Source: an uncultured Candidatus Actinomarina sp. (GTDB lineage Bacteria; Actinomycetota; Acidimicrobiia; Actinomarinales; Actinomarinaceae). Taken from it: a stretch of 64,000 bases of DNA. The stretch covers positions 11,514 through 75,513 of the forward strand of contig CACDQN010000004.1 in assembly GCA_902555055.1 (NCBI GenBank). Direction: 5' to 3'. The stretch's first letter is position 1, and each line of letters begins with the position of its first letter. The notes below the pieces were generated by a model, which was not told where the DNA came from, ran no database searches, and saw only the letters and a program-made list of their open reading frames with translations. The position numbers and the translations under genes were made by a program. Shown one piece after another: positions 16,008 to 29,583 of this stretch.

Positions 16008-16612
16008 TGATTTCAAGTAGTTCAACAATTGAATTTCTCATTCTGCAAATAAGTGTAGCTTTTAGTCCGGGTCTGATAATTGCCTTAATAGTAAATGAGT
16101 CAGTACAAAAAAGTAGAAAAAATGGATTACAAGTAGCAGCTGGTGCAGCGACTGGAGCAGTTTTTATAACTTTAATTACCGCAACTGTCGTTGCATTTGT
16201 ATTCAATTTGATTCCAGGAATACTGACTTCCATTTACATAGTCGGAATAATTTATATCATATACAAAGGAGTCAAAACAATTCGAGCTGAAATTGAGATA
16301 GATGCTCCTAAAGTGACTTCAGAATCATTTAAAGCTGGCATGAAGTTAAATCTACTTAATCCAAAAATGTGGGTTTTTTATTTATCAGTTTTGCCAATAT
16401 TTGTCGAAAGTGAATCAAGCGTATTTCAATCACTCATTTATTTAGGAACTTTAACTATTGGAGTAAATCTTGTTGCTGACATTACATATGCGTTTTTAAG
16501 TAGTTATTTTTTTGGTAGCTCATCATTAAAATCGAAAAAGTTAATAAATAACGTAAGCGGGTTTTGTCTTATTCTTATTGGAGCTTATTTATTTTTCAGT
16601 AGATTCTTCTGA
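16007..16612 (+). CDS. LysE/RhtB family amino-acid exporter
   Basis: 201 aa, about 6 TM. SPGLII near the N-terminus and NLLNPKMWVFYLSVLP resemble LysE-family motifs. GTG start overlaps the upstream TAG. Confidence 0.75.
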   Translation: MISSSSTIEFLILQISVAFSPGLIIALIVNESVQKSRKNGLQVAAGAATGAVFITLITATVVAFVFNLIPGILTSIYIVGIIYIIYKGVKTIRAEIEIDAPKVTSESFKAGMKLNLLNPKMWVFYLSVLPIFVESESSVFQSLIYLGTLTIGVNLVADITYAFLSSYFFGSSSLKSKKLINNVSGFCLILIGAYLFFSRFF

Positions 16613-17542
16613 GTCTTCTGCTACTTCTGATTTATCATCTTTAAATAACTCTGAAATTGCACCAATACTGCCAAGTGTTGCTGAGAGATCCGCTGGTAAG
16701 AATATCTTTGTTGCATTTCCTTCTGCAACTTTTTCAAGTGACTCTAGATATTTAATTGCAATTAAATCATTTGTAGGGTCACCTTTATGAATAGCGGCAA
16801 ATACTTTTTCAATTGCTTCAGATTCACCCTCAGCTATTGCAATTTTTTCATACTTTTGTGCATCTGCAACTTGTTTCAAAGCCTCGGCCTCACCATTTGC
16901 ATCCAAGACTTGAGACTCTTTTCTACCTTCAGCAGAAAGGATTGCAGCTCTTTTTTCACCTTCAGCTTCTGTAACAGCAGCTCTTCTATCTCTTTCAGCT
17001 TTCATAACTTTATTCATTGCATCTTGGACATCTTGTGGTGGGTCGACTCTCTGAATTTCAACCCTAACAACCCTGGTTCCCCATTTGTCGGTAGCCTCAT
17101 CTAAAATAAGTTTTAGTTGAGTATTGATAGTTTCCCTAGATGTCAAAGCTGCATCTAACTCAAGGTCACCAACAACATTTCTTAAGTTTGTTTGAGCTAA
17201 TTTAGTTGCTGCTTGAATGAAGTCTCCAACATTGTATACAAGCTTTTTAGGATCTGTTGGCTCATAGTAAATTACGGCGTCAACAGTAATTGTCACGTTA
17301 TCTTTAGTAATAACTTCTTGTGGTGGAACATCAATGACCTGCTCCCTCATGTCAACAATAATAATTCTTTCAAGACCTGGAATAACAATATTTAGACCGG
17401 GTGTTGCCTGTCTGTTGTATTTACCCAATCTTTCAACAAGACCAGTTTCGAATGGTCTAATAATTCTAAAAATTCTAAAAAGTATTACTCCGAGTAGTAC
17501 GATTACTACTACCCATCTAACTAAACCAAAAATAACATCCAT
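16589..17542 (-). CDS. SPFH/band-7 (stomatin-like) protein
   Basis: 317 aa. N-terminal TM, an SPFH core (FRIIRPFETGLVERLGKY, VDAVIYY) and a C-terminal Ala/Glu-rich coiled coil. Confidence 0.9.
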   Translation of the reverse strand: MDVIFGLVRWVVVIVLLGVILFRIFRIIRPFETGLVERLGKYNRQATPGLNIVIPGLERIIIVDMREQVIDVPPQEVITKDNVTITVDAVIYYEPTDPKKLVYNVGDFIQAATKLAQTNLRNVVGDLELDAALTSRETINTQLKLILDEATDKWGTRVVRVEIQRVDPPQDVQDAMNKVMKAERDRRAAVTEAEGEKRAAILSAEGRKESQVLDANGEAEALKQVADAQKYEKIAIAEGESEAIEKVFAAIHKGDPTNDLIAIKYLESLEKVAEGNATKIFLPADLSATLGSIGAISELFKDDKSEVAEDSEESTEK

Positions 17543-17551
17543 AGCTATATC

Positions 17552-17995
17552 CTAACCTTCCTTCGTTTGTACTTCTAATTTTGTACCATTTACATTTTTG
17601 ACCTCTACGACTGTATCAGCAGGAATACGTTGGTCTATTGAAACAACCTGCCAATCATCACCGAAAACATGTTGGGATATAGATGTGTAAGGATCTAATT
17701 CAGCAGTTGAAATAAACGACTTACCAATATATTTGTTTGTACCCTCATTGAAATTTTGAGACTTACTAGATTTATTTTTCTTAGGGCCGAATATTTTTAT
17801 AGATATATAAACACCTACAATACTAAAAACAACAAAAGTACCTAGTTGAATATTTTGATTATCTGAAACAAGGGAGACAAGGCCAGCAAAAAATGATCCT
17901 ATTGCAAAAGGCAGCATAAAAAAAGTTGTGACTAGAAGTTCAGCAAGTAAAAGAACAGCGGCTGCAATAAACCATATCTGTGTCATGGTGACCAT
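17552..17995 (-). CDS. NfeD family membrane protein
   Basis: 147 aa. Hydrophobic N-terminal half plus a small C-terminal soluble domain. Lies directly upstream of the SPFH gene, the classical NfeD-SPFH pairing. Confidence 0.75.
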   Translation of the reverse strand: MVTMTQIWFIAAAVLLLAELLVTTFFMLPFAIGSFFAGLVSLVSDNQNIQLGTFVVFSIVGVYISIKIFGPKKNKSSKSQNFNEGTNKYIGKSFISTAELDPYTSISQHVFGDDWQVVSIDQRIPADTVVEVKNVNGTKLEVQTKEG

Positions 17996-18364
17996 TTAAT
18001 TTTCTTGTTCTTCCTTTTCAATCTGTTCTTGTTCAAATCTATTTAAAGCCAATAAAAACATGATGAATAAAATTGTGGAACCTATAAGAAATGTTAGTGG
18101 GAGGATTCTTATCTCAAAAGCATTCAGGCCATCAATACTTGCTGGAGCTGGACCTCTTGGAGCATAAAGTAAAAACAAAATCGAATTAATTACTAACCAG
18201 CCAAATGTGCCAGCACCTGTTATCAAAAATGCTAATCTCTTACCTACATTTGTAGCATTAAGTAAAAATGTAGAGCCTAAGAATACAACCAAAGAGCCGG
18301 CGAACATAATAATTCCGGTAACTGTTAAGTTAGATGAAAGTAGTGATCTCATTATTTCACGCAT
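17996..18364 (-). CDS. Hypothetical 4-TM membrane protein in the respiratory operon
   Basis: 122 aa. Its ATG overlaps the cytochrome c stop (ATGCGTGA), and its stop abuts the NfeD start. Confidence 0.55.
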   Translation of the reverse strand: MREIMRSLLSSNLTVTGIIMFAGSLVVFLGSTFLLNATNVGKRLAFLITGAGTFGWLVINSILFLLYAPRGPAPASIDGLNAFEIRILPLTFLIGSTILFIMFLLALNRFEQEQIEKEEQEN

Positions 18365-19781
18365 CTTGTTTCAATCCTCTCAAATAATCAATAATCAAAG
18401 CGATGTCAGATTCTGGCAGTACTGCACCAAATCCGGGCATTTTACCTCCACCTACTCCGTTAACTCCGTAAGCTTTACCATTAACAGAGCCCTTAACAAT
18501 AAAGTCTATCATGTCTTCTCTTTGCTTAAACTGAATATTGGCTCTTCCAGCTCTTAAAGCAGGTCCTAAACCTCCAGAACCTATTTCTTTTGTATAAGCA
18601 ACGCCTGCAGAATAACCTGCGGTGTGACACCTAGCACAATAAGCATTAAACAATCCTATAGCTCTTTTAGCCTTGTCAATATCACCATCGAAAGTAGAGT
18701 CAGCAATCTCTTCAAAAGATACTTCCCAGAGTTTTTCTTCAAGAGCTTTTTCTAAAAATGCTAAGCCTGTCTCAGCTTCACCTAAGAATTTATCATATCC
18801 ATCTGCAACAATTCTTATATTGATAAGCTCTGATTCAAGCTGAGATAGAAATCCGTTTGCAACAGATTTATCTTTTCTTCCAGGAATTGACTCTTCATTA
18901 TCTGGATCTAAATTAAGTATTGAAGTACCAAGAACCTCATTAATATTTGCACTATAAGTAGATATATCAACCTCAACTGAGTCTGTTAAACCATCTTCAT
19001 CAGTATCAATACCACCTTCTTTAGAAAGTAAGGCTGAAACATCAGTTACTGCTTTTTCTAAAACTGGTAATTTAGAAGGGGCGTCTTTGACACTTTGAAT
19101 TAATTCTTTTTGTCTAGCAATTTCATTTTCAACTAAGAGTTCAGAAGTTTCGAGTCTTAGTAAAGAGCTGTTTATACTCATTTCGATAGTAGACAGTTCA
19201 TCATTTTGAGAAATTTGGAAGTGATGGAGGTATTCAATCAAATCATCTAGTTGTCCATCATTCATTGGACCACCTCCGTCTAGACCCCAGGCAGGCATAG
19301 GAGAGTTTGCTCTTCCCCAAATAAGCCAGTATCTTACTTCTTCATCATCGTATCTGTAGAAAACATTGTTAATAGCTGGAGCTTCCCATGTTACGTTTAT
19401 GCCACTTCTTTTTTCAACGTAAGATGCAGCACCTCCAGAGCCATCAACGCCGTGACAATTTCCACAACCAAACTCTTCATATAGGTGCTCTCCACGTTCT
19501 ATAGAAACTTCATCAAACTCTTCAACAAATCCTTCTTGTCTTGTCTCTTCTCCAAGGTAGTAAAGAGGAATCATGATTGTTAGAAGTGATGCAACTAAAA
19601 CGGCTACAGTTAAAGTTCTATCAAGAGTTTTAGTTTCTAAGTCATCATCAGTTCTGTATTTTGTTAAGTTTGGTGCATAATCTGAAACTTTTCCGGAGCC
19701 TCTAAAACCGGCAGAAACAAAAAAAGCAAGACCGCCAGTTAAGCCTAACGCAATAAGTGTAATGAGAATTGAACTACTCAC
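18357..19781 (-). CDS. Membrane-anchored dihaem c-type cytochrome (QcrC-like, enlarged)
   Basis: Two CxxCH motifs (CGNCH, CARCH), each followed by a Met-Pro block (SPMPAWG, GKMPGFG). N-terminal TM. A long non-haem insert separates the two haem domains. Confidence 0.85.
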   Translation of the reverse strand: MSSSILITLIALGLTGGLAFFVSAGFRGSGKVSDYAPNLTKYRTDDDLETKTLDRTLTVAVLVASLLTIMIPLYYLGEETRQEGFVEEFDEVSIERGEHLYEEFGCGNCHGVDGSGGAASYVEKRSGINVTWEAPAINNVFYRYDDEEVRYWLIWGRANSPMPAWGLDGGGPMNDGQLDDLIEYLHHFQISQNDELSTIEMSINSSLLRLETSELLVENEIARQKELIQSVKDAPSKLPVLEKAVTDVSALLSKEGGIDTDEDGLTDSVEVDISTYSANINEVLGTSILNLDPDNEESIPGRKDKSVANGFLSQLESELINIRIVADGYDKFLGEAETGLAFLEKALEEKLWEVSFEEIADSTFDGDIDKAKRAIGLFNAYCARCHTAGYSAGVAYTKEIGSGGLGPALRAGRANIQFKQREDMIDFIVKGSVNGKAYGVNGVGGGKMPGFGAVLPESDIALIIDYLRGLKQDA

Positions 19782-19784
19782 TTA

Positions 19785-20648
19785 TTATTCCTCTGTAGTT
19801 AAAGCTATACAAGATAAGCCTTGAGGGTATTTAACAGACATACCTGGAGCTCTAGGTGATTCAATAATTGTTCCTGTGTCAATAATGAATCTTCCGTTTA
19901 CATTTGAAACATTAAACCTATCTAAATTTCTAGGGGCAGGTCCAGCAAAATATTCTCCTACCATGTTGTATTTTGAACCATGACATGGACACTCAAATCC
20001 TTGAGATGAATTACACCAGGGCACCCTACATCCAAGATGAACACATCTTTGATAAACAGCTACTAAACCATCTGCAACTGTTGAGCCAGATGAAAATTGA
20101 GAATTAGCAGCAGCAGTTTGATCTAATGGAAGAACATAAGCTCTTGCAGATGGAATAAAAGCTGGAATGACTGATCCATCAGCTTGAAATAATTGATCTT
20201 TAATTTCTTCAATTGAGCCCGCATCAATTTTAGAACCAAAGCCTCCTGAGACTTTTGGCCATAAAAATCCAAGCCATGAAATTGCTTGAATACCTGCAAA
20301 AGCTCCAAAAGAAATTCTCAGAGCTTTAGTTAAAAACTGTCTTCTTGTTACTCCAGCTTCCTCTTCAGATATTTCTTCATAGATAACCTTCTCTTCAAGC
20401 TTTACAGCACCATCGGACTCCCCAGCTGGTTCTTCAATCTCATCAACTACTGTCTCTGTTTCACCTTTAGGTAAGTCTGGTTCAAGAAAATTAGTTTGTG
20501 ATTTATCTTCTTTTAAAGCTTTTTTATCAACATTCTTTTTCCAATTAAGATTTTTTGGTCCACGTCCTGTAACTATAACGACAATACCAATAATGCTTAG
20601 TAGTCCTACTGCAGTAAAAGCTGCAAAAGATAACTGAACTATACTCAT
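19785..20648 (-). CDS. Rieske [2Fe-2S] subunit of a bc-type complex
   Basis: CVHLGC and CPCHGS boxes. Internal twin-arginine motif [10 protein letters not shown] preceded by an extra TM and an acidic linker. The probable ATG at 20648 forms an ATGA overlap with the upstream gene (the track uses a TTG at 20663). Confidence 0.9.
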
Positions 20649-21535
20649 TCGAAATGTATCCAATCAAGTAGGTCATCAAACCAGATACCGTCAATCCATG
20701 GATATACCCAGTTCCAGCCTGGACCTCTAAAAAGAACACCTATAATTGTTAAGGTTCCAGCCCCTGCTAAAAAGAACGTGTAAAACATAATTGCAAATTT
20801 TCTCTTTGAAGGATGTGTTTCAGGATTTCTATCTATGTAAGGAAATGCCATCCAAAGTATCAAGCCTACAACTGTTGGAATCATCACTCCAGCTATTTGT
20901 GGGTCCCAATATGACAACATCTCTTGAAGTCCTAAAAAATACCAAGGCGCTTTTGCTGGGTTAGGTGTTACGTTAGGGTTAGCCTCCTCTAACAAAGGAG
21001 CTTGTAAAATTGCTGATAAAAATATTAAGAATGCTGTCATTGCCATAAGTGCAACAAATTCTGGAAGCATTAAGTGAGGCCAAGTGTTAACTTTATCAAT
21101 TGGTTCTTTAACAGGTTTCTGAATTGGCTTGGCTTTAACAACAGTTAGCAATCGTTGTGTTACTTTTACTTCTGGTGCAAAATCAACTTCATCAGGTGCA
21201 TCTGCTTTGGCAGGAGGAGGGGGTTTTGCTGCTGCAGGTTTTTCATCAATTTTTACAGCTGCCACCTTTTCAGTTGTTTCTGCAGCATGCTCTTCTTTTA
21301 TCGGAGTTATAGTCTCTGCTGCTGGGGCTGGGGCTGAAGTCTCAGGTGGTGGAGCTGGGGTCTCTGCTGTTGGAGTTGGAGTCTCGTCAATTACTTTTAC
21401 TTCTGGTTCTTTTGATATGACTGTTGGGTCTGATTGACCTTTCATCTCAGCCATAGCCTGTTCAATACTTATACCAAGAGCTTTAGCTCTAGCTTCTGCT
21501 GATCTCTGCAACAAATGTTCTGGGATATCTACCAT
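20645..21535 (-). CDS. Cytochrome b C-terminal part (subunit IV-like) with an N-terminal extension
   Basis: The C-terminal half has 3-4 TM and an [12 protein letters not shown] block aligning with the PEWYF Qo motif. The N-terminus carries a QRSAEARA module plus a Pro/Ala/Glu/Thr-rich linker. Confidence 0.85.
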
Positions 21536-21542
21536 GATGCCT

Positions 21543-22316
21543 TTATAAAGGTCCTGATATTCCGCCGTCTTTTCTTACTCTCCAGAAATGAACAGCCATG
21601 AATATAACGATTATGAATGGGAAAAAGAGAACATGTAAAACATAAAATCTTAATAAAGTCGCAGTTGTAGCCTCAAGTCCTGCAAATAAACCAAACTTAA
21701 CCTGTGCACCCACAACGGGGACATAGCCAGCCATATTACCTCCTACTGTTACAGCCCAAATAGCTAACTGGTCCCAAGGTAATAAATAACCTGTAAATGA
21801 AAGAAGCAAGGTAAGAAGTAGCAAAATTACTCCAATAACCCAGTTGAATTCTCTTGGAGCTTTGTAAGCACCATGATAGAAAACACGAGACATATGTAAG
21901 AAGACAACTAGAACCATTAAGTGAGCTCCCCACCTATGCATGTTTCTCACTAATGAACCAAAAGCAATAGTTGTTTGAAGATTTTGTATGTCAACATAAG
22001 CTAGTTCAGTAGGTCGGAAATAAAACATCAACCAAATACCTGTAATGGTTAAAACGATGAACAAGAAAAAACTGAGTCCACCTAAGCAGAGAGTATAAGA
22101 TAACCTCACACCATGTCTTTTAACTTTAACTGGATGTAGGTGATACAAAACGTTGTTCATGACAACATATGATCTATTTCTTGGACTGTCTACATAACCT
22201 TTTCTAAATGGTGAACCTGGGCGAAAAATACTAGACATAAGTTTTCCACCTCTAAAGCCATCACTAGCTTTTGCTCTGGTTTCTTTTAACCTATCTCTAA
22301 ATGACATTTTCTGCAT
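21543..22316 (-). CDS. Cytochrome b N-terminal part (b6-like, 4 TM)
   Basis: 257 aa. Haem-ligand His pairs in RNMHRWGAHLMVLVVFLHM and FYVLHVLFFPFIIVIFMAVHFW. Confidence 0.9.
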   Translation of the reverse strand: MQKMSFRDRLKETRAKASDGFRGGKLMSSIFRPGSPFRKGYVDSPRNRSYVVMNNVLYHLHPVKVKRHGVRLSYTLCLGGLSFFLFIVLTITGIWLMFYFRPTELAYVDIQNLQTTIAFGSLVRNMHRWGAHLMVLVVFLHMSRVFYHGAYKAPREFNWVIGVILLLLTLLLSFTGYLLPWDQLAIWAVTVGGNMAGYVPVVGAQVKFGLFAGLEATTATLLRFYVLHVLFFPFIIVIFMAVHFWRVRKDGGISGPL

Positions 22317-22325
22317 TATATTATT

Positions 22326-22772
22326 TTATAGCCTTCCATATATATAACCATGCCTGTCACTTCTTTGGCCAGAATCTTCTTCCCATGGAGCGGTATATAA
22401 ACCATTTTCAACAGCTTGGTCTGCTAAAGATCCTGCAAATTTTCCAAGTGAGATAACTCCCGTAGGACACCTGTCAACACAGAGAGCACATCTTGTACAT
22501 GCTTCTTCATCTACAACAAAGAATCCTGTTGATTCACTTGCATCAGGTGACTCAACATTAATTGAATCTTCAATTGCATCAACTGACAAATAGTGAATAC
22601 ATTTCCATGGACATATATCTACACATCCCTCACATAAGATACATTCAGATTCGTCAATGTGTAGAAATTGTTTTGGCCTAACTCTTGATGAAACTTTTTC
22701 AGCATCAACCATTGCAAGATTGTATTTCTTTTCAAAATCTGGCATCTCAATAAGTACTTCGGATTTAGCCAT
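22326..22772 (-). CDS. 2x[4Fe-4S] ferredoxin-domain protein
   Basis: CILCEGCVDICP and CTRCALCVDRCP cluster motifs. The probable ATG at 22772 overlaps the upstream stop by 8 nt (the track uses a TTG at 22781). Confidence 0.85.
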   Translation of the reverse strand: MAKSEVLIEMPDFEKKYNLAMVDAEKVSSRVRPKQFLHIDESECILCEGCVDICPWKCIHYLSVDAIEDSINVESPDASESTGFFVVDEEACTRCALCVDRCPTGVISLGKFAGSLADQAVENGLYTAPWEEDSGQRSDRHGYIYGRL

Positions 22773-23358
22773 CTTGGTCAACCCTCACAACTTCTTTTCC
22801 ATAGTCTGAAATTCTTGATTTTGAAGATTCGATTTTATCATTGATATCTTGAATCAAATATGCAACAACACAGCCAGCTATAAGAAAGTTGGTAGAAATT
22901 CCAGCTTGTATAATGTCTTTTAAAGCCCCAAGGCTTAGACCAATTTCATTATTTAAAAATAGAATCGGAGGAAAGTTGATAAACTCTCTTTGACCTGTCC
23001 ACTCAAGAGGACCTTGAGCAAGGTTTAACCATTCTGAAGGAACTATGCCTAATAATATGGCCATCTCAATCCAGACTATGAATGAAAAATAAGTAGCTTT
23101 TGCCCAAGTTAATTCTTTTTGATTCCAGACAACAAGTACCATACCAAGAAGTAGTAACTGGCTTGCTCCAAATGCCAAAAGTTGCCCGATAGTTTGAGGT
23201 AACCAACCACGAGGCATCCAATTGAAATAATCTATAAATTCTCCTTCAGGAAAGCCAGCGAAGTGGGCTATGAGTACACCGATAGTCATACCGCCAATGC
23301 CAGAAACAATTGAGATAAAACCTATTCTGTATCTAAATTTATAAATTGTGTATATCAA
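22765..23358 (-). CDS. Hypothetical polytopic membrane protein, first gene of the respiratory operon
   Basis: 197 aa, about 5 TM. No family recognised. Overlaps the ferredoxin gene. Confidence 0.55.
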   Translation of the reverse strand: MIYTIYKFRYRIGFISIVSGIGGMTIGVLIAHFAGFPEGEFIDYFNWMPRGWLPQTIGQLLAFGASQLLLLGMVLVVWNQKELTWAKATYFSFIVWIEMAILLGIVPSEWLNLAQGPLEWTGQREFINFPPILFLNNEIGLSLGALKDIIQAGISTNFLIAGCVVAYLIQDINDKIESSKSRISDYGKEVVRVDQDG

Positions 23359-23505
23359 ATTTCCTCAAACCTTACCTATATATAATATCGTATGTTGGGG
23401 ACAAATTATAAATTGATTAGATATCTTTTTTTAAAAATTTTCAACATTACCAAGCCACTTTTTTCCAATATAATAGTAAAGTCATAGTGAATATTTACTA
23501 AATAT

Positions 23506-24897
23506 ATGAAACTTAAGTTAATTCCAAAAAATGAACAAGAGCTTTCAAAACTTTTTGTTTTGATTTTTCCACTAACTCTTCTTTTGTCATCCCTTTTTAC
23601 GTTCCTTAAAGATTCATACTTCACATTTGCAAATTTACTGCCAAACAATCAAATCTTTAATTATGGATTTTTAGATCGCGTAAGCACGAAAGCAAGTTTT
23701 GGGTTAGTTTTTGCCACAATAATTTGTTTAACATTTGCATATCTATTCTCAAAATCTCTGGGACGTGTTGCAGTTTTGTTCCCATTATTATTCCTAACTT
23801 TACTTGGATTCATAGGCACTGAATTTTTAGATATTATTCTTAGCTTTTTTTATCAGGATAATTTAAACATAACTGGCAGTATTTCTATTGTAATTTTATT
23901 AAAAATTCTGGTTGCATTCGGATTATTTGGTCTTGCTTCTCTTAATTTATTAGCAAAGAAGGAAACTACTATATTTGCGAGTGCTCAATTTATTTATGGG
24001 GCTGTGGTCTTCTACTTCTTATCATTACTAATAGCTAGAAGTGAATTGATCGTTTTTACTGACTCTCTTTTAATAACTTCTTTATATACTTCAACCCACA
24101 TATATGTAGCATTCTCATTTATCTATCTTGCAATTATTCACTTTCTAATGACGAAACCTATTGATGCCACACTTTTCAGTAAGACCCTGTCTTCAATTAC
24201 TTTCTGGGGGTTCTTGTTTTTACTTCCATGGACTAGTTATAAATATTATTTTGGATCAGTTCTACCAAACTGGTTAGAAAATGTATCTATATATCTTTCT
24301 TTAAGTCTAATTATTCCTTTACTGGCATTTGCTGTTAACTACGTAAAAACAACTCAAACACGAGAAATTGACATGAACAAATCTGCTAATCTCATGAATT
24401 TTTCAGTTATTCTATTTTTAATAACAAATGTACTTCATATAGTTTCTAGCTTTGAAAACTTACTTCCATTAGTTGGTTTAACAAACTTTCAAAATGTTAT
24501 ATCTCATGGCTATTTTGGTTCTCTTGTTTTAGCTTCTGTTTCTCTAAGCTATTATTTAATTCCTAAACTATTTGGAAGATCTGTAAAGTATTCATTATTA
24601 GAAAATCTAATATTTGGTGGATTTAAATTAACATACCTATTTCTTTTGGTAAATAACTTTTTAATAGGTGTCAATTCTGGATATTCATGGAATGCAGCAG
24701 CGAATGCGGGGAGTCCAGCTATCTACGGAGAGGGTTTCAACATAGTTTGGAATTTAGTCGGAATAAATTACTCAGCAAATACATTTATTTCATTGTTATT
24801 TCTTGGCGTATCAACATTGTTTTTCATATCAATAATTAGGTCAATTAGTTCTGGAGATATTACAACTGTTGAAGAAATGGTTTTTAGTAATGAGTGA
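23506..24897 (+). CDS. Haem-copper oxidase subunit I (cbb3 CcoN)-like polytopic protein lacking most canonical His ligands
   Basis: 463 aa, about 12 TM. Blocks ITFWGFLFLLPWTSYKYYFGSVLPNW and ISHGYFGSLVLASVSLSYYLIPKLFGRS align with CcoN helix 7 and helix 10-11 as recalled. There are only 4 His in the whole protein. Followed by a CcoO-like gene. Confidence 0.6.
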   Translation: MKLKLIPKNEQELSKLFVLIFPLTLLLSSLFTFLKDSYFTFANLLPNNQIFNYGFLDRVSTKASFGLVFATIICLTFAYLFSKSLGRVAVLFPLLFLTLLGFIGTEFLDIILSFFYQDNLNITGSISIVILLKILVAFGLFGLASLNLLAKKETTIFASAQFIYGAVVFYFLSLLIARSELIVFTDSLLITSLYTSTHIYVAFSFIYLAIIHFLMTKPIDATLFSKTLSSITFWGFLFLLPWTSYKYYFGSVLPNWLENVSIYLSLSLIIPLLAFAVNYVKTTQTREIDMNKSANLMNFSVILFLITNVLHIVSSFENLLPLVGLTNFQNVISHGYFGSLVLASVSLSYYLIPKLFGRSVKYSLLENLIFGGFKLTYLFLLVNNFLIGVNSGYSWNAAANAGSPAIYGEGFNIVWNLVGINYSANTFISLLFLGVSTLFFISIIRSISSGDITTVEEMVFSNE

Positions 24898-25636
24898 GTT
24901 AGTTAATAAAGTAGCAGAAATACTTAATGCTCCAATAGATCTAGTCCAAAGATCAGCCGAAGCAAGAGCAGCTGCATCAGGTAAGTCTGTAGATGAAGTT
25001 CTCAGTTCTTGGGCTGGTGGAGAAAGTATAGAATCTACAGCACCAGTTGAAGAGACTCCAGTTGAAGAGACTCCTGTTGAAGAGACTCCAGTTGAAGAGA
25101 CTCCAGTTGAAGAAGTGGTTCAAGAAGTAGTAGAAGAATTAGTAGATCTAAAAAATGAGAGCTCGTTAGCATTCATTTCAGGTGTACTGTCAATTGCAGT
25201 GTTTACATTTGTATTTGCATTTTTAATTCCTAAAAATCAATCAATAAGGATTGTTGAAAGCTCGTTGAACAACACTATAAGTGTTTCTGCTGACGTAATA
25301 AAAGGTGCAGAAATTTATAGTGAGCTAAACTGCCAGTCTTGCCATACACAAAATGTAAGAACTCTTATTCCAGATACTCAAAATGGAAAAGTTTTAAGTA
25401 ATAAATATGCGAATAAAGCATTGATAAAGAATATTGGAAATATTCGACTTGGGCCAGATTTGTCAACTAATAGTCTCCGAGAACCTACAAACAATGCACA
25501 ATGGTTAGGTCGATATTTAACTGATTCATCATCTGTTAATAGAGAAATACCTCATCCTAACTATGAATTTCTTGATGATCAGGATTTGGACTACCTCGTA
25601 ACTTATTTACTATCATTAGGAGAGCCAAATGAGTGA
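24890..25636 (+). CDS. Monohaem c-type cytochrome, cbb3 CcoO-like, with an N-terminal QRSAEARA module
   Basis: GAEIYSELNCQSCHTQNVR and IRLGPDL resemble the CcoO haem and RxGPDL blocks. One TM. Probable ATG at 24890 (MSELVNK, the same start as the next gene), which overlaps the upstream stop as ATGAGTGA. Confidence 0.7.
   Translation: MSELVNKVAEILNAPIDLVQRSAEARAAASGKSVDEVLSSWAGGESIESTAPVEETPVEETPVEETPVEETPVEEVVQEVVEELVDLKNESSLAFISGVLSIAVFTFVFAFLIPKNQSIRIVESSLNNTISVSADVIKGAEIYSELNCQSCHTQNVRTLIPDTQNGKVLSNKYANKALIKNIGNIRLGPDLSTNSLREPTNNAQWLGRYLTDSSSVNREIPHPNYEFLDDQDLDYLVTYLLSLGEPNE
25043..25113 (+). repeat. In-frame 15-nt tandem repeat (about 4.7 copies) encoding (PVEET)n
   Basis: ccagttgaagagact repeated head-to-tail from 25043. 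One synonymous variant (cctgtt). Confidence 0.9.
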
Positions 25637-26564
25637 GTTAGTCAATAAAGTAGCTGAATTATTAAACGCACCAGTAGACCTAGTACAGAGATCTGCTGAA
25701 GCAAGGGCTGCTGCATCAGGTAAGTCTGTAGATGAAGTTCTCAGTTCTTGGGCTGGTGGAGAAAGTATAGAAGCTTCAGCGCCAGTTGCTGAAACTCCAA
25801 AAGAGGAAGCGCCAGTTGCTGAAACTCCAAAAGAGGAAGCGCCAGTTACTGAAACCCCAAAAGAGGAAGCGCCAGTTACTGAAACCCCAAAAGAAACCAT
25901 TGCTGCTGCTGTAACTCAAAAAATTACAAATTCTTATTCAGTTATTAATGAAACAATGGGAATAAAAACTAACTCAGATACACTTCTGCCTAAATGGTTA
26001 AATTTTAGCTTTATAATTATTCCTCTATTTATATTGGTTGGATTAATTAGTTCTTCCAACACTCAAGAGTGTGGAGAAAGAGGTATGTTGAATATTGATA
26101 GAAAATCCCAACAGGCTGTTAATTGTGATGGTTCTCCATACGAAGGTAGAGGAGTTGCTTCAACAAACACTATCAACTACATTGCACTTGGACAAGAGGT
26201 ATATGCAGGAGCTGCTGCATGTGCTGGATGTCATGGCGGCGGTGGTGGTGGAGGTGTTGGGCCAGCATTTACAGGTGGTGCGCTTTATACAACCTTTCCA
26301 ACATGTGCAGATCATGCCAAGTGGATACAGCTAGGTTCTGCAGGATGGCAAGCAGAAGTGGGGCCAACGTACGGGGCAGAAGATACAGTATCTATTGGAG
26401 GTATGCCCGGATTTCAAGGAAAACTTACTGAAGATGAATTATACGCAGTTGTAGTTTTTGAAAGAGTTGTTTTTGGTGGAGGAAATACTGAAGAAGTATT
26501 GACCGATTGTGGTCTTCTCGAAACTGAAGAAGAGGAAGTCACAACCGAAGCGATTAGTCCATAG
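25629..26564 (+). CDS. Membrane-anchored class I c-type cytochrome (CcoP-like monohaem) with an N-terminal QRSAEARA module
   Basis: CAGCH haem motif, GGMPGF Met block, LTEDELYAVVVFERV. One TM. Its start overlaps the upstream stop as ATGAGTGA. Confidence 0.8.
   Translation: MSELVNKVAELLNAPVDLVQRSAEARAAASGKSVDEVLSSWAGGESIEASAPVAETPKEEAPVAETPKEEAPVTETPKEEAPVTETPKETIAAAVTQKITNSYSVINETMGIKTNSDTLLPKWLNFSFIIIPLFILVGLISSSNTQECGERGMLNIDRKSQQAVNCDGSPYEGRGVASTNTINYIALGQEVYAGAAACAGCHGGGGGGGVGPAFTGGALYTTFPTCADHAKWIQLGSAGWQAEVGPTYGAEDTVSIGGMPGFQGKLTEDELYAVVVFERVVFGGGNTEEVLTDCGLLETEEEEVTTEAISP
25779..25894 (+). repeat. In-frame 30-nt tandem repeat (about 4 copies) encoding (APVAETPKEE)n
   Basis: gcgccagttgctgaaactccaaaagaggaa repeated. 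Copies 3-4 carry gct-to-act and act-to-acc changes. Confidence 0.9.
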
Positions 26565-28755: not shown

Positions 28756-29583
28756 CTATCGAACTTTCAACTTTGAATTTTCAACTTTTATTTTAACTTT
28801 AGAACTGTCTTTACAATCTAGAACTTGGCTTGCATTACCGTTGCTTACAAAGAGAGAAACCATACCCCATGAGTCAACAACTATACCAATATCTCTCTCA
28901 TTATCATTTTGATATGTTTCGCACCATTTTGCTTTAATCTCTTGATTGCCAATAGTAAGACTTAAAACATCGCCAATCTGAAAATTTTTATCTTTCAATT
29001 CATCTGGGGATACATTTGTTTGACAGTTACCAAAGTGATCTACATAGAGAATTTCTCCTTTTATTTCCTTGTCGGAGATATCAGTAAGAGGAATTAAATA
29101 CTGTGTTAAATCTTCAAGATTGAGTTCTCTACCAAAGTCTTCAAGCTTCAATTGTCCCGATGCATATGCTGCAGCAAATGGTGCAAAAATATCTCTAGCA
29201 TGAAATGTTTCACCTTCGTGAGGAATAATCCAATTCTCATTCTCTAAAAGAAACGCCTGTTTTGCTCCACCAACTGTTGCGCAAGCTAAATTTAATAGGC
29301 CATTGTCCGGTCCAATCATTAATCCCCAATCTGTAGTGATAGCAATTGGATTTCTTTCTGTTCCTACACCCGGATCTACAACAGCTAACAACACGCCGTT
29401 AGGAATATATTGAATTGCTCTCATCAAAAGTAGGCTTCCGTATTTTATATTTTGAGGTGGAATCCCATGTGATATATCATTTATTTTTAAATCAGAATCT
29501 ACTCTATTTATTACACCCTTAACAACACCAACGGAACCGTCTTCTAGCCCAAAATCTGATGCAAAAGATATGATTTCTTTCAT
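28756..29583 (-). CDS. SAM hydroxide adenosyltransferase / SAM hydrolase family (DUF62)
   Basis: 275 aa. FASDFGLEDGSVGVVKGVI, VVDPGVGT and YVDHFGN blocks are typical of the family. Confidence 0.8.
   Translation of the reverse strand: MKEIISFASDFGLEDGSVGVVKGVINRVDSDLKINDISHGIPPQNIKYGSLLLMRAIQYIPNGVLLAVVDPGVGTERNPIAITTDWGLMIGPDNGLLNLACATVGGAKQAFLLENENWIIPHEGETFHARDIFAPFAAAYASGQLKLEDFGRELNLEDLTQYLIPLTDISDKEIKGEILYVDHFGNCQTNVSPDELKDKNFQIGDVLSLTIGNQEIKAKWCETYQNDNERDIGIVVDSWGMVSLFVSNGNASQVLDCKDSSKVKIKVENSKLKVR

Follow-up and report, generated by a model that had tools for sequence, protein, structure and literature searches.

A three-helix N-terminal module common to respiratory membrane proteins of Acidimicrobiia and its possible role in docking

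Three proteins encoded in the window analyzed here, i.e., the whole 64 kb stretch of DNA from an uncultured Candidatus Actinomarina sp., carry one common module at their N-termini: a PetD-like subunit IV, a FixO/CcoO-like cytochrome and a class I cytochrome c. This module is a previously undescribed autonomous three-helix domain of about 33–45 residues, and its co-occurrence and synteny tentatively suggest a docking handle common to the quinol-to-oxygen chain. In the three window proteins its core reads PxxL[LV]xRSAEARAxAxG. The initial annotation, which had reported such a module on three proteins, was borne out: coordinates and N-termini of the ORFs (subunit IV at 20645-21535 on the minus strand, class I cytochrome c at 25629-26564 on the plus strand and the FixO-like ORF ending at 25636 on the plus strand) were confirmed by a direct check of the window, and the module is conserved in orthologues of all three. 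The mechanical ORF start of the FixO-like gene is TTG 24869; the conserved start is ATG 24890 (MSELV...), the equivalent of which is used by the paralogue and by all orthologues. The features of the region are the following:

17996..23358, minus strand: bc-type operon with subunit IV (Pfam, NCBIfam)
17996-18364, minus strand: small membrane protein (matches to P0336 and P0351)
18357-19781, minus strand: dihaem cytochrome c
19785-20663, minus strand: Rieske protein
20645..21061, minus strand: PetD-like membrane core of subunit IV with three predicted TM helices (PF00032, 34.9 bits vs. gathering score 20.7)
21062..21436, minus strand: Pro/Ala/Lys/Glu/Thr-rich linker of subunit IV, residues ~34-158 (composition; net charge -6)
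21437..21535, minus strand: short (two-helix) module, residues 1-33 of subunit IV (HMM; 66/66 orthologues with 5' end)
21543-22316, minus strand: cytochrome b6-like protein
22326-22781, minus strand: 2x[4Fe-4S] ferredoxin-like subunit
22765-23358, minus strand: ORF197 of the bc operon
23506..24897, plus strand: CcoN/COX1-like polytopic protein without conserved His ligands ('pseudo-CcoN'), first gene of the two-module operon (weak COX1 and ccoN matches)
24890..25024, plus strand: long (three-helix) module, residues 1-45 of the FixO/CcoO-like mono-haem cytochrome (HMM, AlphaFold2)
25025..25171, plus strand: acidic Glu/Val/Thr/Pro linker of the FixO-like protein with (ETPVE)n repeats (net charge -15)
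25172..25636, plus strand: TM anchor (residues 95-113) and haem c domain (CQSCH at residue 148) of the FixO-like protein (PF02433, 33.2 bits vs. gathering score 29.6)
25629..25763, plus strand: long (three-helix) module, residues 1-45 of class I cytochrome c (HMM)
25764..25997, plus strand: Glu/Thr/Ala/Pro linker of cytochrome c with (APVxETPKEE)n repeats (composition)
25998..26564, plus strand: TM anchor (residues 124-142) and haem domain (CAGCH at residue 198) of class I cytochrome c (PF13442, PF00034)

A six-frame search of the window with an HMM of the three modules matched only the three loci, with E-values of 6e-31, 1e-30 and 1.5e-20 that are self-matches because the HMM was built from these same modules; the next best match had an E-value of 4.4. 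Compared alone, the subunit IV module and the cytochrome module are weakly alike, with 14 of 33 residues identical (E = 0.007 in a single comparison), and the independent evidence against a chance likeness is conservation in relatives. AlphaFold2 predicted a confident three-helix bundle for the module (pLDDT ~89-90), with helices at residues 3-12, 16-30 and 34-41 of the FixO-like protein, the last two in a helix-turn-helix (HTH) arrangement, which agrees with the HTH-like look noticed in the initial annotation. In the same protein the linker was modelled with a pLDDT of ~50-57 and the TM helix with confidence, and module and linker are thus predicted to resemble a folded bead on a flexible string. 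All three linkers are low-complexity, net acidic and partly encoded by tandem repeats: a 21-nt repeat at 21329-21385 in the subunit IV linker DNA, 15 nt x 4.7 at 25043-25113 in that of the FixO-like protein and 30 nt x 3.9 at 25778-25894 in that of cytochrome c. These tethers of 50-125 residues, predicted to be disordered, lead into a membrane anchor as described before, each cytochrome having a single predicted TM helix and subunit IV having three; hydrophobic sequence first appears with this anchor, at residue 95 of the FixO-like protein, 124 of cytochrome c and 159 of subunit IV. In line with the earlier placement, we infer that the module lies on the cytoplasmic side, where the topology of its parent families (PetD and anchored cytochromes c) puts the N-terminus.

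The identity of the carriers was examined likewise. Subunit IV resembles PetD in its PF00032 match, its three predicted TM helices and the cytochrome b6-like gene immediately upstream, and is not an equivalog of cyanobacterial PetD (TIGR01156, 14 bits vs. 127). The FixO-like protein has the PF02433 domain, one TM helix, one CxxCH motif and a ccoN-like ORF before its gene, as in CcoO/FixO, and scores far under the ccoO equivalog cut-off (22 bits vs. 200); in a Foldseek search with its full model NorC chains ranked first, not significantly.

The module itself could not be matched to any described domain, as had been suspected. Pfam-A 2025 yielded zero matches over the gathering score for the three window modules and 35 further module sequences, all NCBIfam 20.0 matches of the three full proteins fell C-terminal to the module, a PDB profile search gave as best match a designed repeat protein (E = 0.11), and Foldseek of the module model against the PDB returned designed helical repeats only (E > 1), the fold not being assignable by Foldseek because the domain is too small. 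The possibility, raised earlier, of a well-known signal or generic domain was likewise checked, and the module matches neither; a reading of the three N-termini found, ahead of the TM anchors, no hydrophobic stretch or RR motif of Sec, Tat or lipoprotein signals. Pfam matches to DUF1805 (17-19 bits vs. gathering score 29.5, in 2/35 members only), HTH_23 and HTH_28 (2/35 and 1/35 members, E = 0.075-0.16) and MIF were rejected as being under threshold, inconsistent among members or derived from summed repeats. In literature searches, neither the module, the gene cluster nor the His-less CcoN was found described.

Conservation of the module extends far beyond the single genome. None of the 66 subunit IV genes that have their 5' end inside the fetched GTDB loci lacked it, and it is nearly invariant there across Acidimicrobiia; both cytochromes carry it in every fetched locus reaching them, high-GC Acidimicrobiia included, and so do 120/120 FixO-like homologues. 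A homologue search with full subunit IV found more than 7,900 distinct relatives, and the 120 matches listed, all >80% identical, added no diversity. Since the trio and a 10-gene divergent cluster are kept across Acidimicrobiia down to ~50% identity, the concern of the initial annotation about a duplication confined to one genome can be set aside. The core residues P, L, R, S, A, R, A, G and W are invariant in genomes of 33% to ~70% GC. Moreover, the modules of the two window cytochromes differ at 15 of 135 nt (120/135 identical, ~89%) and share 43 of 45 residues; 13 of the differences leave the amino acid unchanged and the other two fall in codons where it changes conservatively (I/L, I/V), a synonymous excess that points to selection at the protein level and away from a very recent copy. 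The module sequence is under purifying selection. The mean identity of the two cytochrome modules is 86% within one genome as compared to 65% for orthologues between genomes, which implies that they evolve in concert, as a common partner would predict; gene conversion of the adjacent cytochrome genes could give the same pattern. The subunit IV form and the 7-TM form described below are distinct module subtypes in most marine lineages, and the core common to all subtypes is just P..L..RS(A/I)(E/Q)ARA.A.G; thus, an identical handle is not required on all carriers.

Which other proteins carry the module, a question left by the initial annotation, was addressed with a profile built from the window sequences and exact substrings of retrieved proteins. 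Among 1.84 billion representative proteins only 447 clusters matched. The best 150 of these 447 clusters included 147 newly retrieved proteins, 61 of which had a recognizable C-terminal part, and all 61 belonged to five respiratory membrane families, including one read-through (cytochrome c 24, FixO 14, subunit IV 11, 7-TM protein 9, small bc-operon subunit 2, read-through 1). The C-terminal part of the other 86 was not recognizable, and these appear to be fragments or frameshifted calls. Two carriers are thereby added to the trio, namely a small membrane subunit encoded in the bc operon and, from the caa3 operon, a ~7-TM protein. In a metagenome scan with one 7-TM protein as query, the 7-TM protein carried the module in 73/80 loci, the other seven ORFs being split or cut by the contig end, and in 54 of the 57 metagenomic loci with enough upstream DNA its gene is the one that directly follows ctaG in the caa3 operon. 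The retrieved proteins P0336 and P0351 match the small membrane ORF of the window (1e-25 to 1e-28), and in other lineages this protein carries 3-7 modules. Tandem arrays of 2-7 modules with Ala/Pro-rich linkers in between were found in some relatives, in the same families and in high-GC genomes; they count in favour of docking because recruitment modules are typically multivalent in this way. Where a carrier has a single copy, the module begins at residue 1-2. A word-indexed search with a 44-residue profile returned only proteins of ≤77 residues and no new architectures; these proteins are pieces of close relatives, and many of them run into frameshifted sequence within the linker.

Together, the divergently oriented bc and cbb3-like operons make up a single conserved unit of 10 genes, the order of which is kept in distant Acidimicrobiia; it contains no conserved chaperone gene and no Rex gene. 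SPFH and NfeD genes downstream of the bc operon were considered as a general hub and rejected because their linkage is confined to the Actinomarina clade (SPFH in 53/54 and NfeD in 28/54 near loci; 3/26 and 0/26 in far loci).

The initial annotation had assigned the two module-bearing cytochromes to an oxidase-like complex, and the genes do resemble those of CcoN and FixO; a cbb3 oxidase is not what they encode. A functional cbb3 enzyme is defined by six conserved histidines in CcoN, of which two ligate haem b, one haem b3 and three CuB; according to PMC11214002, every HCO family keeps these histidines, the sole exception being one substitution in gNOR. The CcoN-like window protein contains four His and no HH or HxH motif, zero His columns are conserved in 21 syntenic orthologues, one of which lacks His altogether, and the fused N-O proteins of other lineages likewise lack the catalytic His motifs. 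Without conserved His for haem and Cu, the CcoN-like subunit cannot belong to a working oxidase, and for the two cytochromes a role as an electron relay or scaffold fits better than one in an oxidase. Genes of the class routinely annotated as 'cbb3-type oxidase subunit II' adjoin this His-less protein, to which neither haem nor copper can bind; this changes metagenome-based inferences on high-affinity oxygen respiration in Acidimicrobiia.

The restriction of the module to respiratory-chain proteins among the matches examined, in up to seven copies, indicates that it probably docks complexes. The earlier suggestion of a docking, assembly or tethering function, or of a common partner, is thereby strengthened by the caa3-operon and further bc-operon carriers, the respiratory-only distribution and the tandem copies, although its role is still something that we infer. 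We propose that membrane-anchored subunits of the menaquinol-to-oxygen branch in Acidimicrobiia and related Actinomycetota hold the module out into the cytoplasm, where it would sit at the N-terminal end of a long acidic tether predicted to be disordered. In the b6c-type bc complex it is carried by subunit IV, joined in some lineages by the small membrane subunit; in the cbb3-like module, which is catalytically dead, by both cytochromes c; and in the caa3 operon by the ~7-TM protein. Each complex would present one or several copies that bind each other or one cytoplasmic or membrane-peripheral partner, so that complexes of one electron path may be held together or one common factor recruited to all, with a valency tuned through tandem amplification (1-7 copies). 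Simple self-binding is disfavoured by the acidity of the modules, the net charge of which averages -3.3, and tethers of 50-125 disordered residues cannot hold complexes rigidly, which also counts against docking. A wider version, which we regard as doubtful, is a cytoplasmic organizing system in which multivalent handles gather the bc complex, the dead cbb3-like relay and the caa3 oxidase into one assembly or membrane patch, acting via handle-handle binding or a putative hub. If true, supercomplexes would here be organized from their cytoplasmic face, with evolution adjusting the system through copy number, and we know of no other respiratory chain with a principle of this kind.

An unlikely alternative to a docking handle is a biogenesis or quality-control tag, i.e., an N-terminal domain acting during insertion and assembly of the subunit, either recognized by an assembly chaperone or capping the cytoplasmic tail against membrane proteases such as FtsH. 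It would fit the position of the module at residue 1-2 of single-copy carriers, the fact that every carrier is a membrane subunit needing assembly into multi-subunit cofactor complexes, and the adjacency of one carrier family to the assembly factor gene ctaG. However, up to seven copies are hard to square with a targeting or capping signal, the carriers use differing cofactor pathways (haem c, none, haem b neighbours), and the 10-gene cluster conserves no chaperone gene. A regulatory module, which would bind a small metabolite or sequester a soluble regulator such as the redox-sensing repressor Rex at the membrane and thus let gene expression or activity respond to the state of the chain, is considerably less probable. 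Multivalent sequestering of a dimeric regulator is conceivable, the three-helix shape is HTH-like, and Rex-type genes (Put_DNA-bind_N plus CoA_binding) adjoin module-bearing genes in three high-GC loci; yet the conserved Acidimicrobiia cluster has no Rex gene, respiratory operons are ordinary Rex targets anyway, and a bundle of 33-45 residues leaves little room for a ligand pocket and shows no cofactor-binding motif. Equally improbable is a passive spacer or solubility 'bristle', in which module and linker limit crowding or set the spacing of complexes without a specific partner: the highly acidic, repetitive and length-variable linkers, net negative like the module itself, would suit it, but it needs neither a core that is invariant from 33% to ~70% GC nor the 13:2 synonymous excess. 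A nucleic-acid-binding HTH tying respiratory complexes to DNA or RNA is very improbable despite the A-x3-G-x5-V spacing, which fits the classical pattern, and marginal HTH_23/HTH_28 matches in 3/35 members, as these are far under threshold, the would-be recognition helix 3 has a net charge of -1 to -3 in 35/35 members, the module averages -3.3 and the adjoining linkers are strongly acidic. A functionless artefact of recent duplication or gene conversion, to which the ~89% DNA identity of the two cytochrome modules might point, is refuted by class-wide conservation, also on unlinked genes, and by copy differences that are almost all synonymous.

Marine metagenomes frequently contain Candidatus Actinomarina and other Acidimicrobiia, whose respiratory chain is annotated by analogy only. 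The new domain family labels five membrane proteins from three gene clusters (bc complex, cbb3-like module and caa3 operon), from which we predict that these belong together. As a soluble domain of 45 residues, it offers a concrete bait for a partner search and for studying respiratory organization in actinobacteria without soluble cytochrome c.

Among known systems, the tri-helical HTH_23, HTH_28 and DUF1805 domains are similar to the module in size and in the HTH arrangement of the last two helices, and differ in that the module surface is acidic and scores far under their thresholds. The obligate bcc-aa3 supercomplex of Mycobacterium and Corynebacterium (e.g., PDB 6ADQ, 7E1V) couples complexes III and IV with lineage-specific accessory subunits. 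Common to both is an actinobacterial respiratory chain without soluble cytochrome c and with lineage-specific extras, whereas QcrB is unsplit in bcc-aa3 and split here into b6 and subunit IV, accompanied by a ferredoxin-like subunit. To our knowledge, no common N-terminal module has been reported for the bcc-aa3 supercomplex. In Rhodobacter capsulatus and Pseudomonas aeruginosa, membrane-anchored cytochromes (cy, CcoP) are reported to link bc1 and cbb3 in CIII2CIV supercomplexes (PMC7876108, PMC10556555). Similarly, N-terminally anchored c-type cytochromes of the cbb3 gene family accompany the bc complex in Acidimicrobiia, and here as there they would pass electrons between complexes. Contacts in the CIII2CIV structures are reportedly made via TM helices and periplasmic domains, and we know of no common cytoplasmic domain described for them. 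The system presented here differs in having a CcoN-like subunit devoid of any metal ligand and a common element on the cytoplasmic side. Finally, the peripheral subunit-binding domain (PSBD, Pfam E3_binding) of 2-oxo acid dehydrogenase E2 chains is a helical mini-domain of ~35-45 residues on Ala/Pro-rich flexible linkers, sometimes beside other repeated modules, the sole job of which is docking partner enzymes to a large complex. Homology to it (PF02817) was rejected, with an hhalign probability of 0.4% over 12 aligned columns, and PSBD chains, though many are in the PDB, were absent from the PDB sequence matches (E ≤ 10) and the Foldseek matches. Unlike PSBD carriers, the carriers of the module are membrane proteins; as an analogy of function, the PSBD is the best one for the tethered docking bead proposed here.

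ORF prediction combined with Pfam and NCBIfam annotation revealed two divergent operons in the window, the GC content of which is about 33%. The genes of the minus-strand operon are, in this order, those for ORF197, a ferredoxin-like protein (2x[4Fe-4S]), the cytochrome b6-like protein, the PetD-like subunit IV, the Rieske protein, the dihaem cytochrome c and a small membrane protein, and the plus-strand operon encodes a CcoN/COX1-like protein followed by two cytochromes, one FixO/CcoO-like with a single haem and one a class I cytochrome c. The initial annotation had reported a common N-terminal module followed by a low-complexity linker on three of these subunits, and the N-termini quoted there were recovered in the following window ORFs:

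20645-21535, minus strand, PetD-like subunit IV with N-terminal module
likely start ATG 24890, plus strand, FixO-like mono-haem cytochrome with N-terminal module
25629-26564, plus strand, class I cytochrome c with N-terminal module

The start of the FixO-like gene is most likely ATG 24890 and not the mechanically listed TTG 24869, because its paralogue and all orthologues begin with MSE. An HMM of the three modules, searched against the six-frame translation of the window, found only the three sites from which it was built (next best E = 4.4). Compared directly and taken alone, the modules of subunit IV and of the cytochromes match only weakly (14/33 identical, E = 0.007), and therefore the case for a shared module rests on its conservation.

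Almost all relatives of subunit IV bore the titles Candidatus Actinomarina, OCS155 or Acidimicrobiia, with identities of up to 94% (one-genome-per-species contigs). The module was present on each of the 66 subunit IV genes with a 5' end inside the 80 fetched loci, on both cytochromes in every fetched locus reaching the divergent operon, and, in a profile search with distant FixO-like proteins, at the N-terminus of 120/120 FixO-like homologues listed. This conservation extends to high-GC Acidimicrobiia in which subunit IV is only about 50% identical; thus, the module is conserved class-wide and not confined to a single genome, a possibility that the initial annotation had raised. Moreover, a unit of ten genes is kept in distant Acidimicrobiia genomes: cytochrome c, FixO-like and CcoN-like in one direction, and ORF197, ferredoxin-like, b6, subunit IV, Rieske, dihaem c and small membrane protein in the other. 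A complete Actinomarina-type cluster with a subunit IV 81% identical to that of the window was also found in the MAG 'Gammaproteobacteria bacterium LRMED-300' (JBJKYB010000001.1, 124.9 kb; locus L012), the bin label of which is probably wrong.

The module consensus is MSxxLxAAAxALGxPExLVxRSAEARAAAxGxSVEExLAxWAGGE. The cytochromes carry a long form with three helices, subunit IV a short form without the first helix that is almost invariant across the class, and in most marine lineages a further family of proteins with about seven TM helices (~7-TM) carries a subtype of its own (..GIPQMLVSRSAQARAEASGVSVDDVLNSWTGGE); common to all forms are the core P..L..R(S/T)(A/I)(E/Q)ARA.A.G and a hydrophobic third helix. 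AlphaFold2 modelling from a 24-sequence alignment gave a mean pLDDT of 88.6 with helices at residues 3-12, 16-30 and 34-41, and when the FixO-like protein was modelled in full, confidence was again high for the module (pLDDT about 90) and for the TM helix, with about 50-57 for the linker (residues 45-90): the module is modelled as a folded bead on a flexible string. Module sequences matched nothing above threshold in Pfam, NCBIfam or PDB sequences, and a Foldseek search of the module model against the PDB gave no significant match. None of the three window carriers has a signal-peptide-like hydrophobic stretch upstream of the TM anchor. It follows from the topology of the carrier families that the module is cytoplasmic, because the haem c domains must be extracellular and one TM helix lies between them and the module; the N-terminus of PetD in the b6f family is on the n-side. 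The linkers are acidic, repetitive and partly encoded by tandem DNA repeats:

21329-21385, 21-nt tandem repeat
25043-25146, 15-nt tandem repeat
25778-25894, 30-nt tandem repeat

Since many database proteins of relatives (retrieved proteins P0010, P0017, P0030, P0043, P0090, P0093 and P0095) are truncated within the module or the linker and finish with out-of-frame sequence, the repeats seem to be a source of errors in assembly or gene calling. A 94-aa ORF on the opposite strand (25616-25900) is a repeat artefact.

The distribution of the module was analyzed by scoring A7, a profile built from window sequences and exact substrings of retrieved proteins, against 1.84 billion representative proteins, among which only 447 clusters matched at E <= 0.001. 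The best matches contained 2-7 tandem modules separated by Ala/Pro-rich linkers. The best 150 of the 447 clusters yielded 147 newly retrieved proteins. A recognisable C-terminal part was present in 61 of them, and all 61 fall in five respiratory membrane families; the other 86 lack such a part and resemble fragments or frameshifted calls.

Module carriers with a recognisable C-terminal part (best 150 of 447 clusters)
Class I cytochrome c: 24 hits, 1-5 module copies
FixO-like: 14 hits, 1-2 module copies
Subunit IV-like: 11 hits, 2-5 module copies
~7-TM protein: 9 hits, 1 module copy
Small membrane protein of the bc operon (homologues of window ORF 17996-18364): 2 hits, 3 and 7 module copies
Read-through: 1 hit, 1 module copy

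The additional ~7-TM family could be assigned to the caa3 operon: its Actinomarina-type member P0459 lies in an operon COX2(c)-COX1-COX3-COX4-CtaG-P0459, and two high-GC members adjoin ctaG or lie within 2 kb of it. In a metagenome scan, module and ~7-TM protein shared one ORF in 73/80 loci, the remaining seven ORFs being split or cut by the contig end, and ctaG was located directly upstream on the same strand in 54 of the 57 loci with enough upstream DNA. A role of this family in electron transfer at the caa3 oxidase is hinted at by one member, P0455 (486 aa), which has a C-terminal cupredoxin-like domain with weak Pfam matches to SoxE and Copper-bind (about 20-21 bits, just below threshold). 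Taken together, the family tally and the ctaG neighbourhood indicate that, among the matches seen (best 150 of 447), the module marks only proteins that belong to the bc complex, to the cbb3-like module or to the caa3 operon.

High-GC Actinomycetota MAGs possess the same divergent cluster with the CcoN-like and FixO-like proteins fused; the fusion carries no module, and there are 3-4 modules on the cytochrome c and two on subunit IV. In some Actinomycetota, a subunit IV-like protein bearing 3-5 modules is encoded away from any full bc operon (L082 2118-3647, L087 9371-11455), and neither a Rieske nor a cytochrome c gene is close by; directly upstream lies a cytochrome b gene in L087, and upstream in L082 a 139-aa ORF without Pfam match. 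A Rex-type gene (Put_DNA-bind_N + CoA_binding) adjoins module-bearing genes in high-GC relatives (L082 3837-4460, L086 1382-1936, L087 11544-12173). Additionally, a SAM hydroxide adenosyltransferase (SAM_HAT) gene is found near the cluster both in high-GC relatives and in the window (28756-29583), so that some local synteny may be preserved.

The CcoN-like protein of the window (23506-24897, plus strand) matched COX1 and ccoN only weakly and contains four His but no HH or HxH motif. No conserved His column was found among 21 syntenic orthologues, one of which has no His at all (orthologues in L055-L080, L083 8075-9997 and L086 8009-9994), and HH/HxH motifs are likewise absent from the fused CcoN-FixO versions. 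On this evidence the protein is predicted to be a 'pseudo-CcoN', a CcoN-like subunit without any ligand for haem b, haem b3 or CuB. Given that the active-site His are kept throughout the HCO families, apart from a single substitution in gNOR (PMC11214002), the 'cbb3' of this cluster, judged from its sequence, cannot be an oxidase. The CcoN-like protein probably serves the two cytochromes as a scaffold, and the three proteins together are predicted to contain haem c but neither haem b nor Cu. Many FixO-like homologues, partners of the pseudo-CcoN, are named 'cbb3-type cytochrome c oxidase subunit II' or 'cbb3-type oxidase subunit II' in databases, and oxygen-affinity inferences for Acidimicrobiia may consequently be wrong.

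The bc-type complex of the window is unusual and may have an n-side iron-sulfur branch. Its operon starts with ORF197, a membrane ORF of unknown family, and its ferredoxin-like subunit has no predicted TM helix (ORF197 to cytochrome b, 21543-23358, minus strand). With 287.7 bits, the cytochrome b falls just short of the cut-off of 290 for NCBIfam ExtP (selenite/tellurite reduction operon cytochrome b), and it keeps a Cys in the motif TLCLGG, a position that would correspond to that of the haem ci cysteine in b6-type cytochromes. Directly after this operon, on the same strand, lie SPFH/Band 7 and NfeD genes (16589-17995, minus strand); SPFH is linked to the bc operon in 53/54 near loci of the Actinomarina clade as compared to 3/26 in distant Acidimicrobiia, and NfeD in 28/54 as compared to 0/26.

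The module is under strong purifying selection; functionless duplication is essentially excluded. The two cytochrome modules of the window differ over 135 nt by 13 synonymous nucleotides and 2 nt in non-synonymous codons. Across 42 genomes, FixO-like and cytochrome c modules within one genome shared a mean identity of 86%, orthologous modules between genomes 65%, and cross-comparisons 64%. The two modules thus evolve in concert, either by gene conversion or by the need to fit the same partner.

The module is best read as a tethered docking handle common to the complexes of the quinol-to-oxygen path, because it combines a folded mini-domain with a long, flexible tether, occurs among the matches seen on these respiratory subunits only, faces the same membrane side in every carrier, is under strong purifying selection and is amplified in tandem in some lineages. 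Rival explanations are that it serves as an assembly or quality-control tag, that it acts in regulation or sequestration, or that it is a passive acidic spacer. The mean net charge of the module is -3.3 and that of helix 3 is always -1 to -3; this acidity argues against binding of nucleic acids or anionic lipids, and nucleic-acid binding is essentially excluded. As docking handles, the modules of different complexes would bind each other or a common hub, for which candidates are the ferredoxin-like subunit, which alone among the cluster proteins lacks a predicted TM helix, the His-less CcoN-like scaffold with its cytoplasmic face, or the product of a gene elsewhere. The absence of the module from FixO where it is covalently fused to the CcoN-like protein is a weak hint on this question.

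The carriers belong to families already known (PetD, FixO and class I cytochrome c), and the module is a new domain family. Full-text literature searches found no description of the module, the gene cluster or a ligand-less CcoN, and to our knowledge there is no described counterpart of one cytoplasmic domain placed on subunits of several respiratory complexes in variable tandem copy number. Homology to the peripheral subunit-binding domain (E3_binding) of 2-oxo acid dehydrogenase E2 chains was tested and rejected. That domain, likewise a helical mini-domain between Ala/Pro linkers, is nevertheless the closest functional analogy, and the proposed function of the module resembles that of known tethered docking domains.
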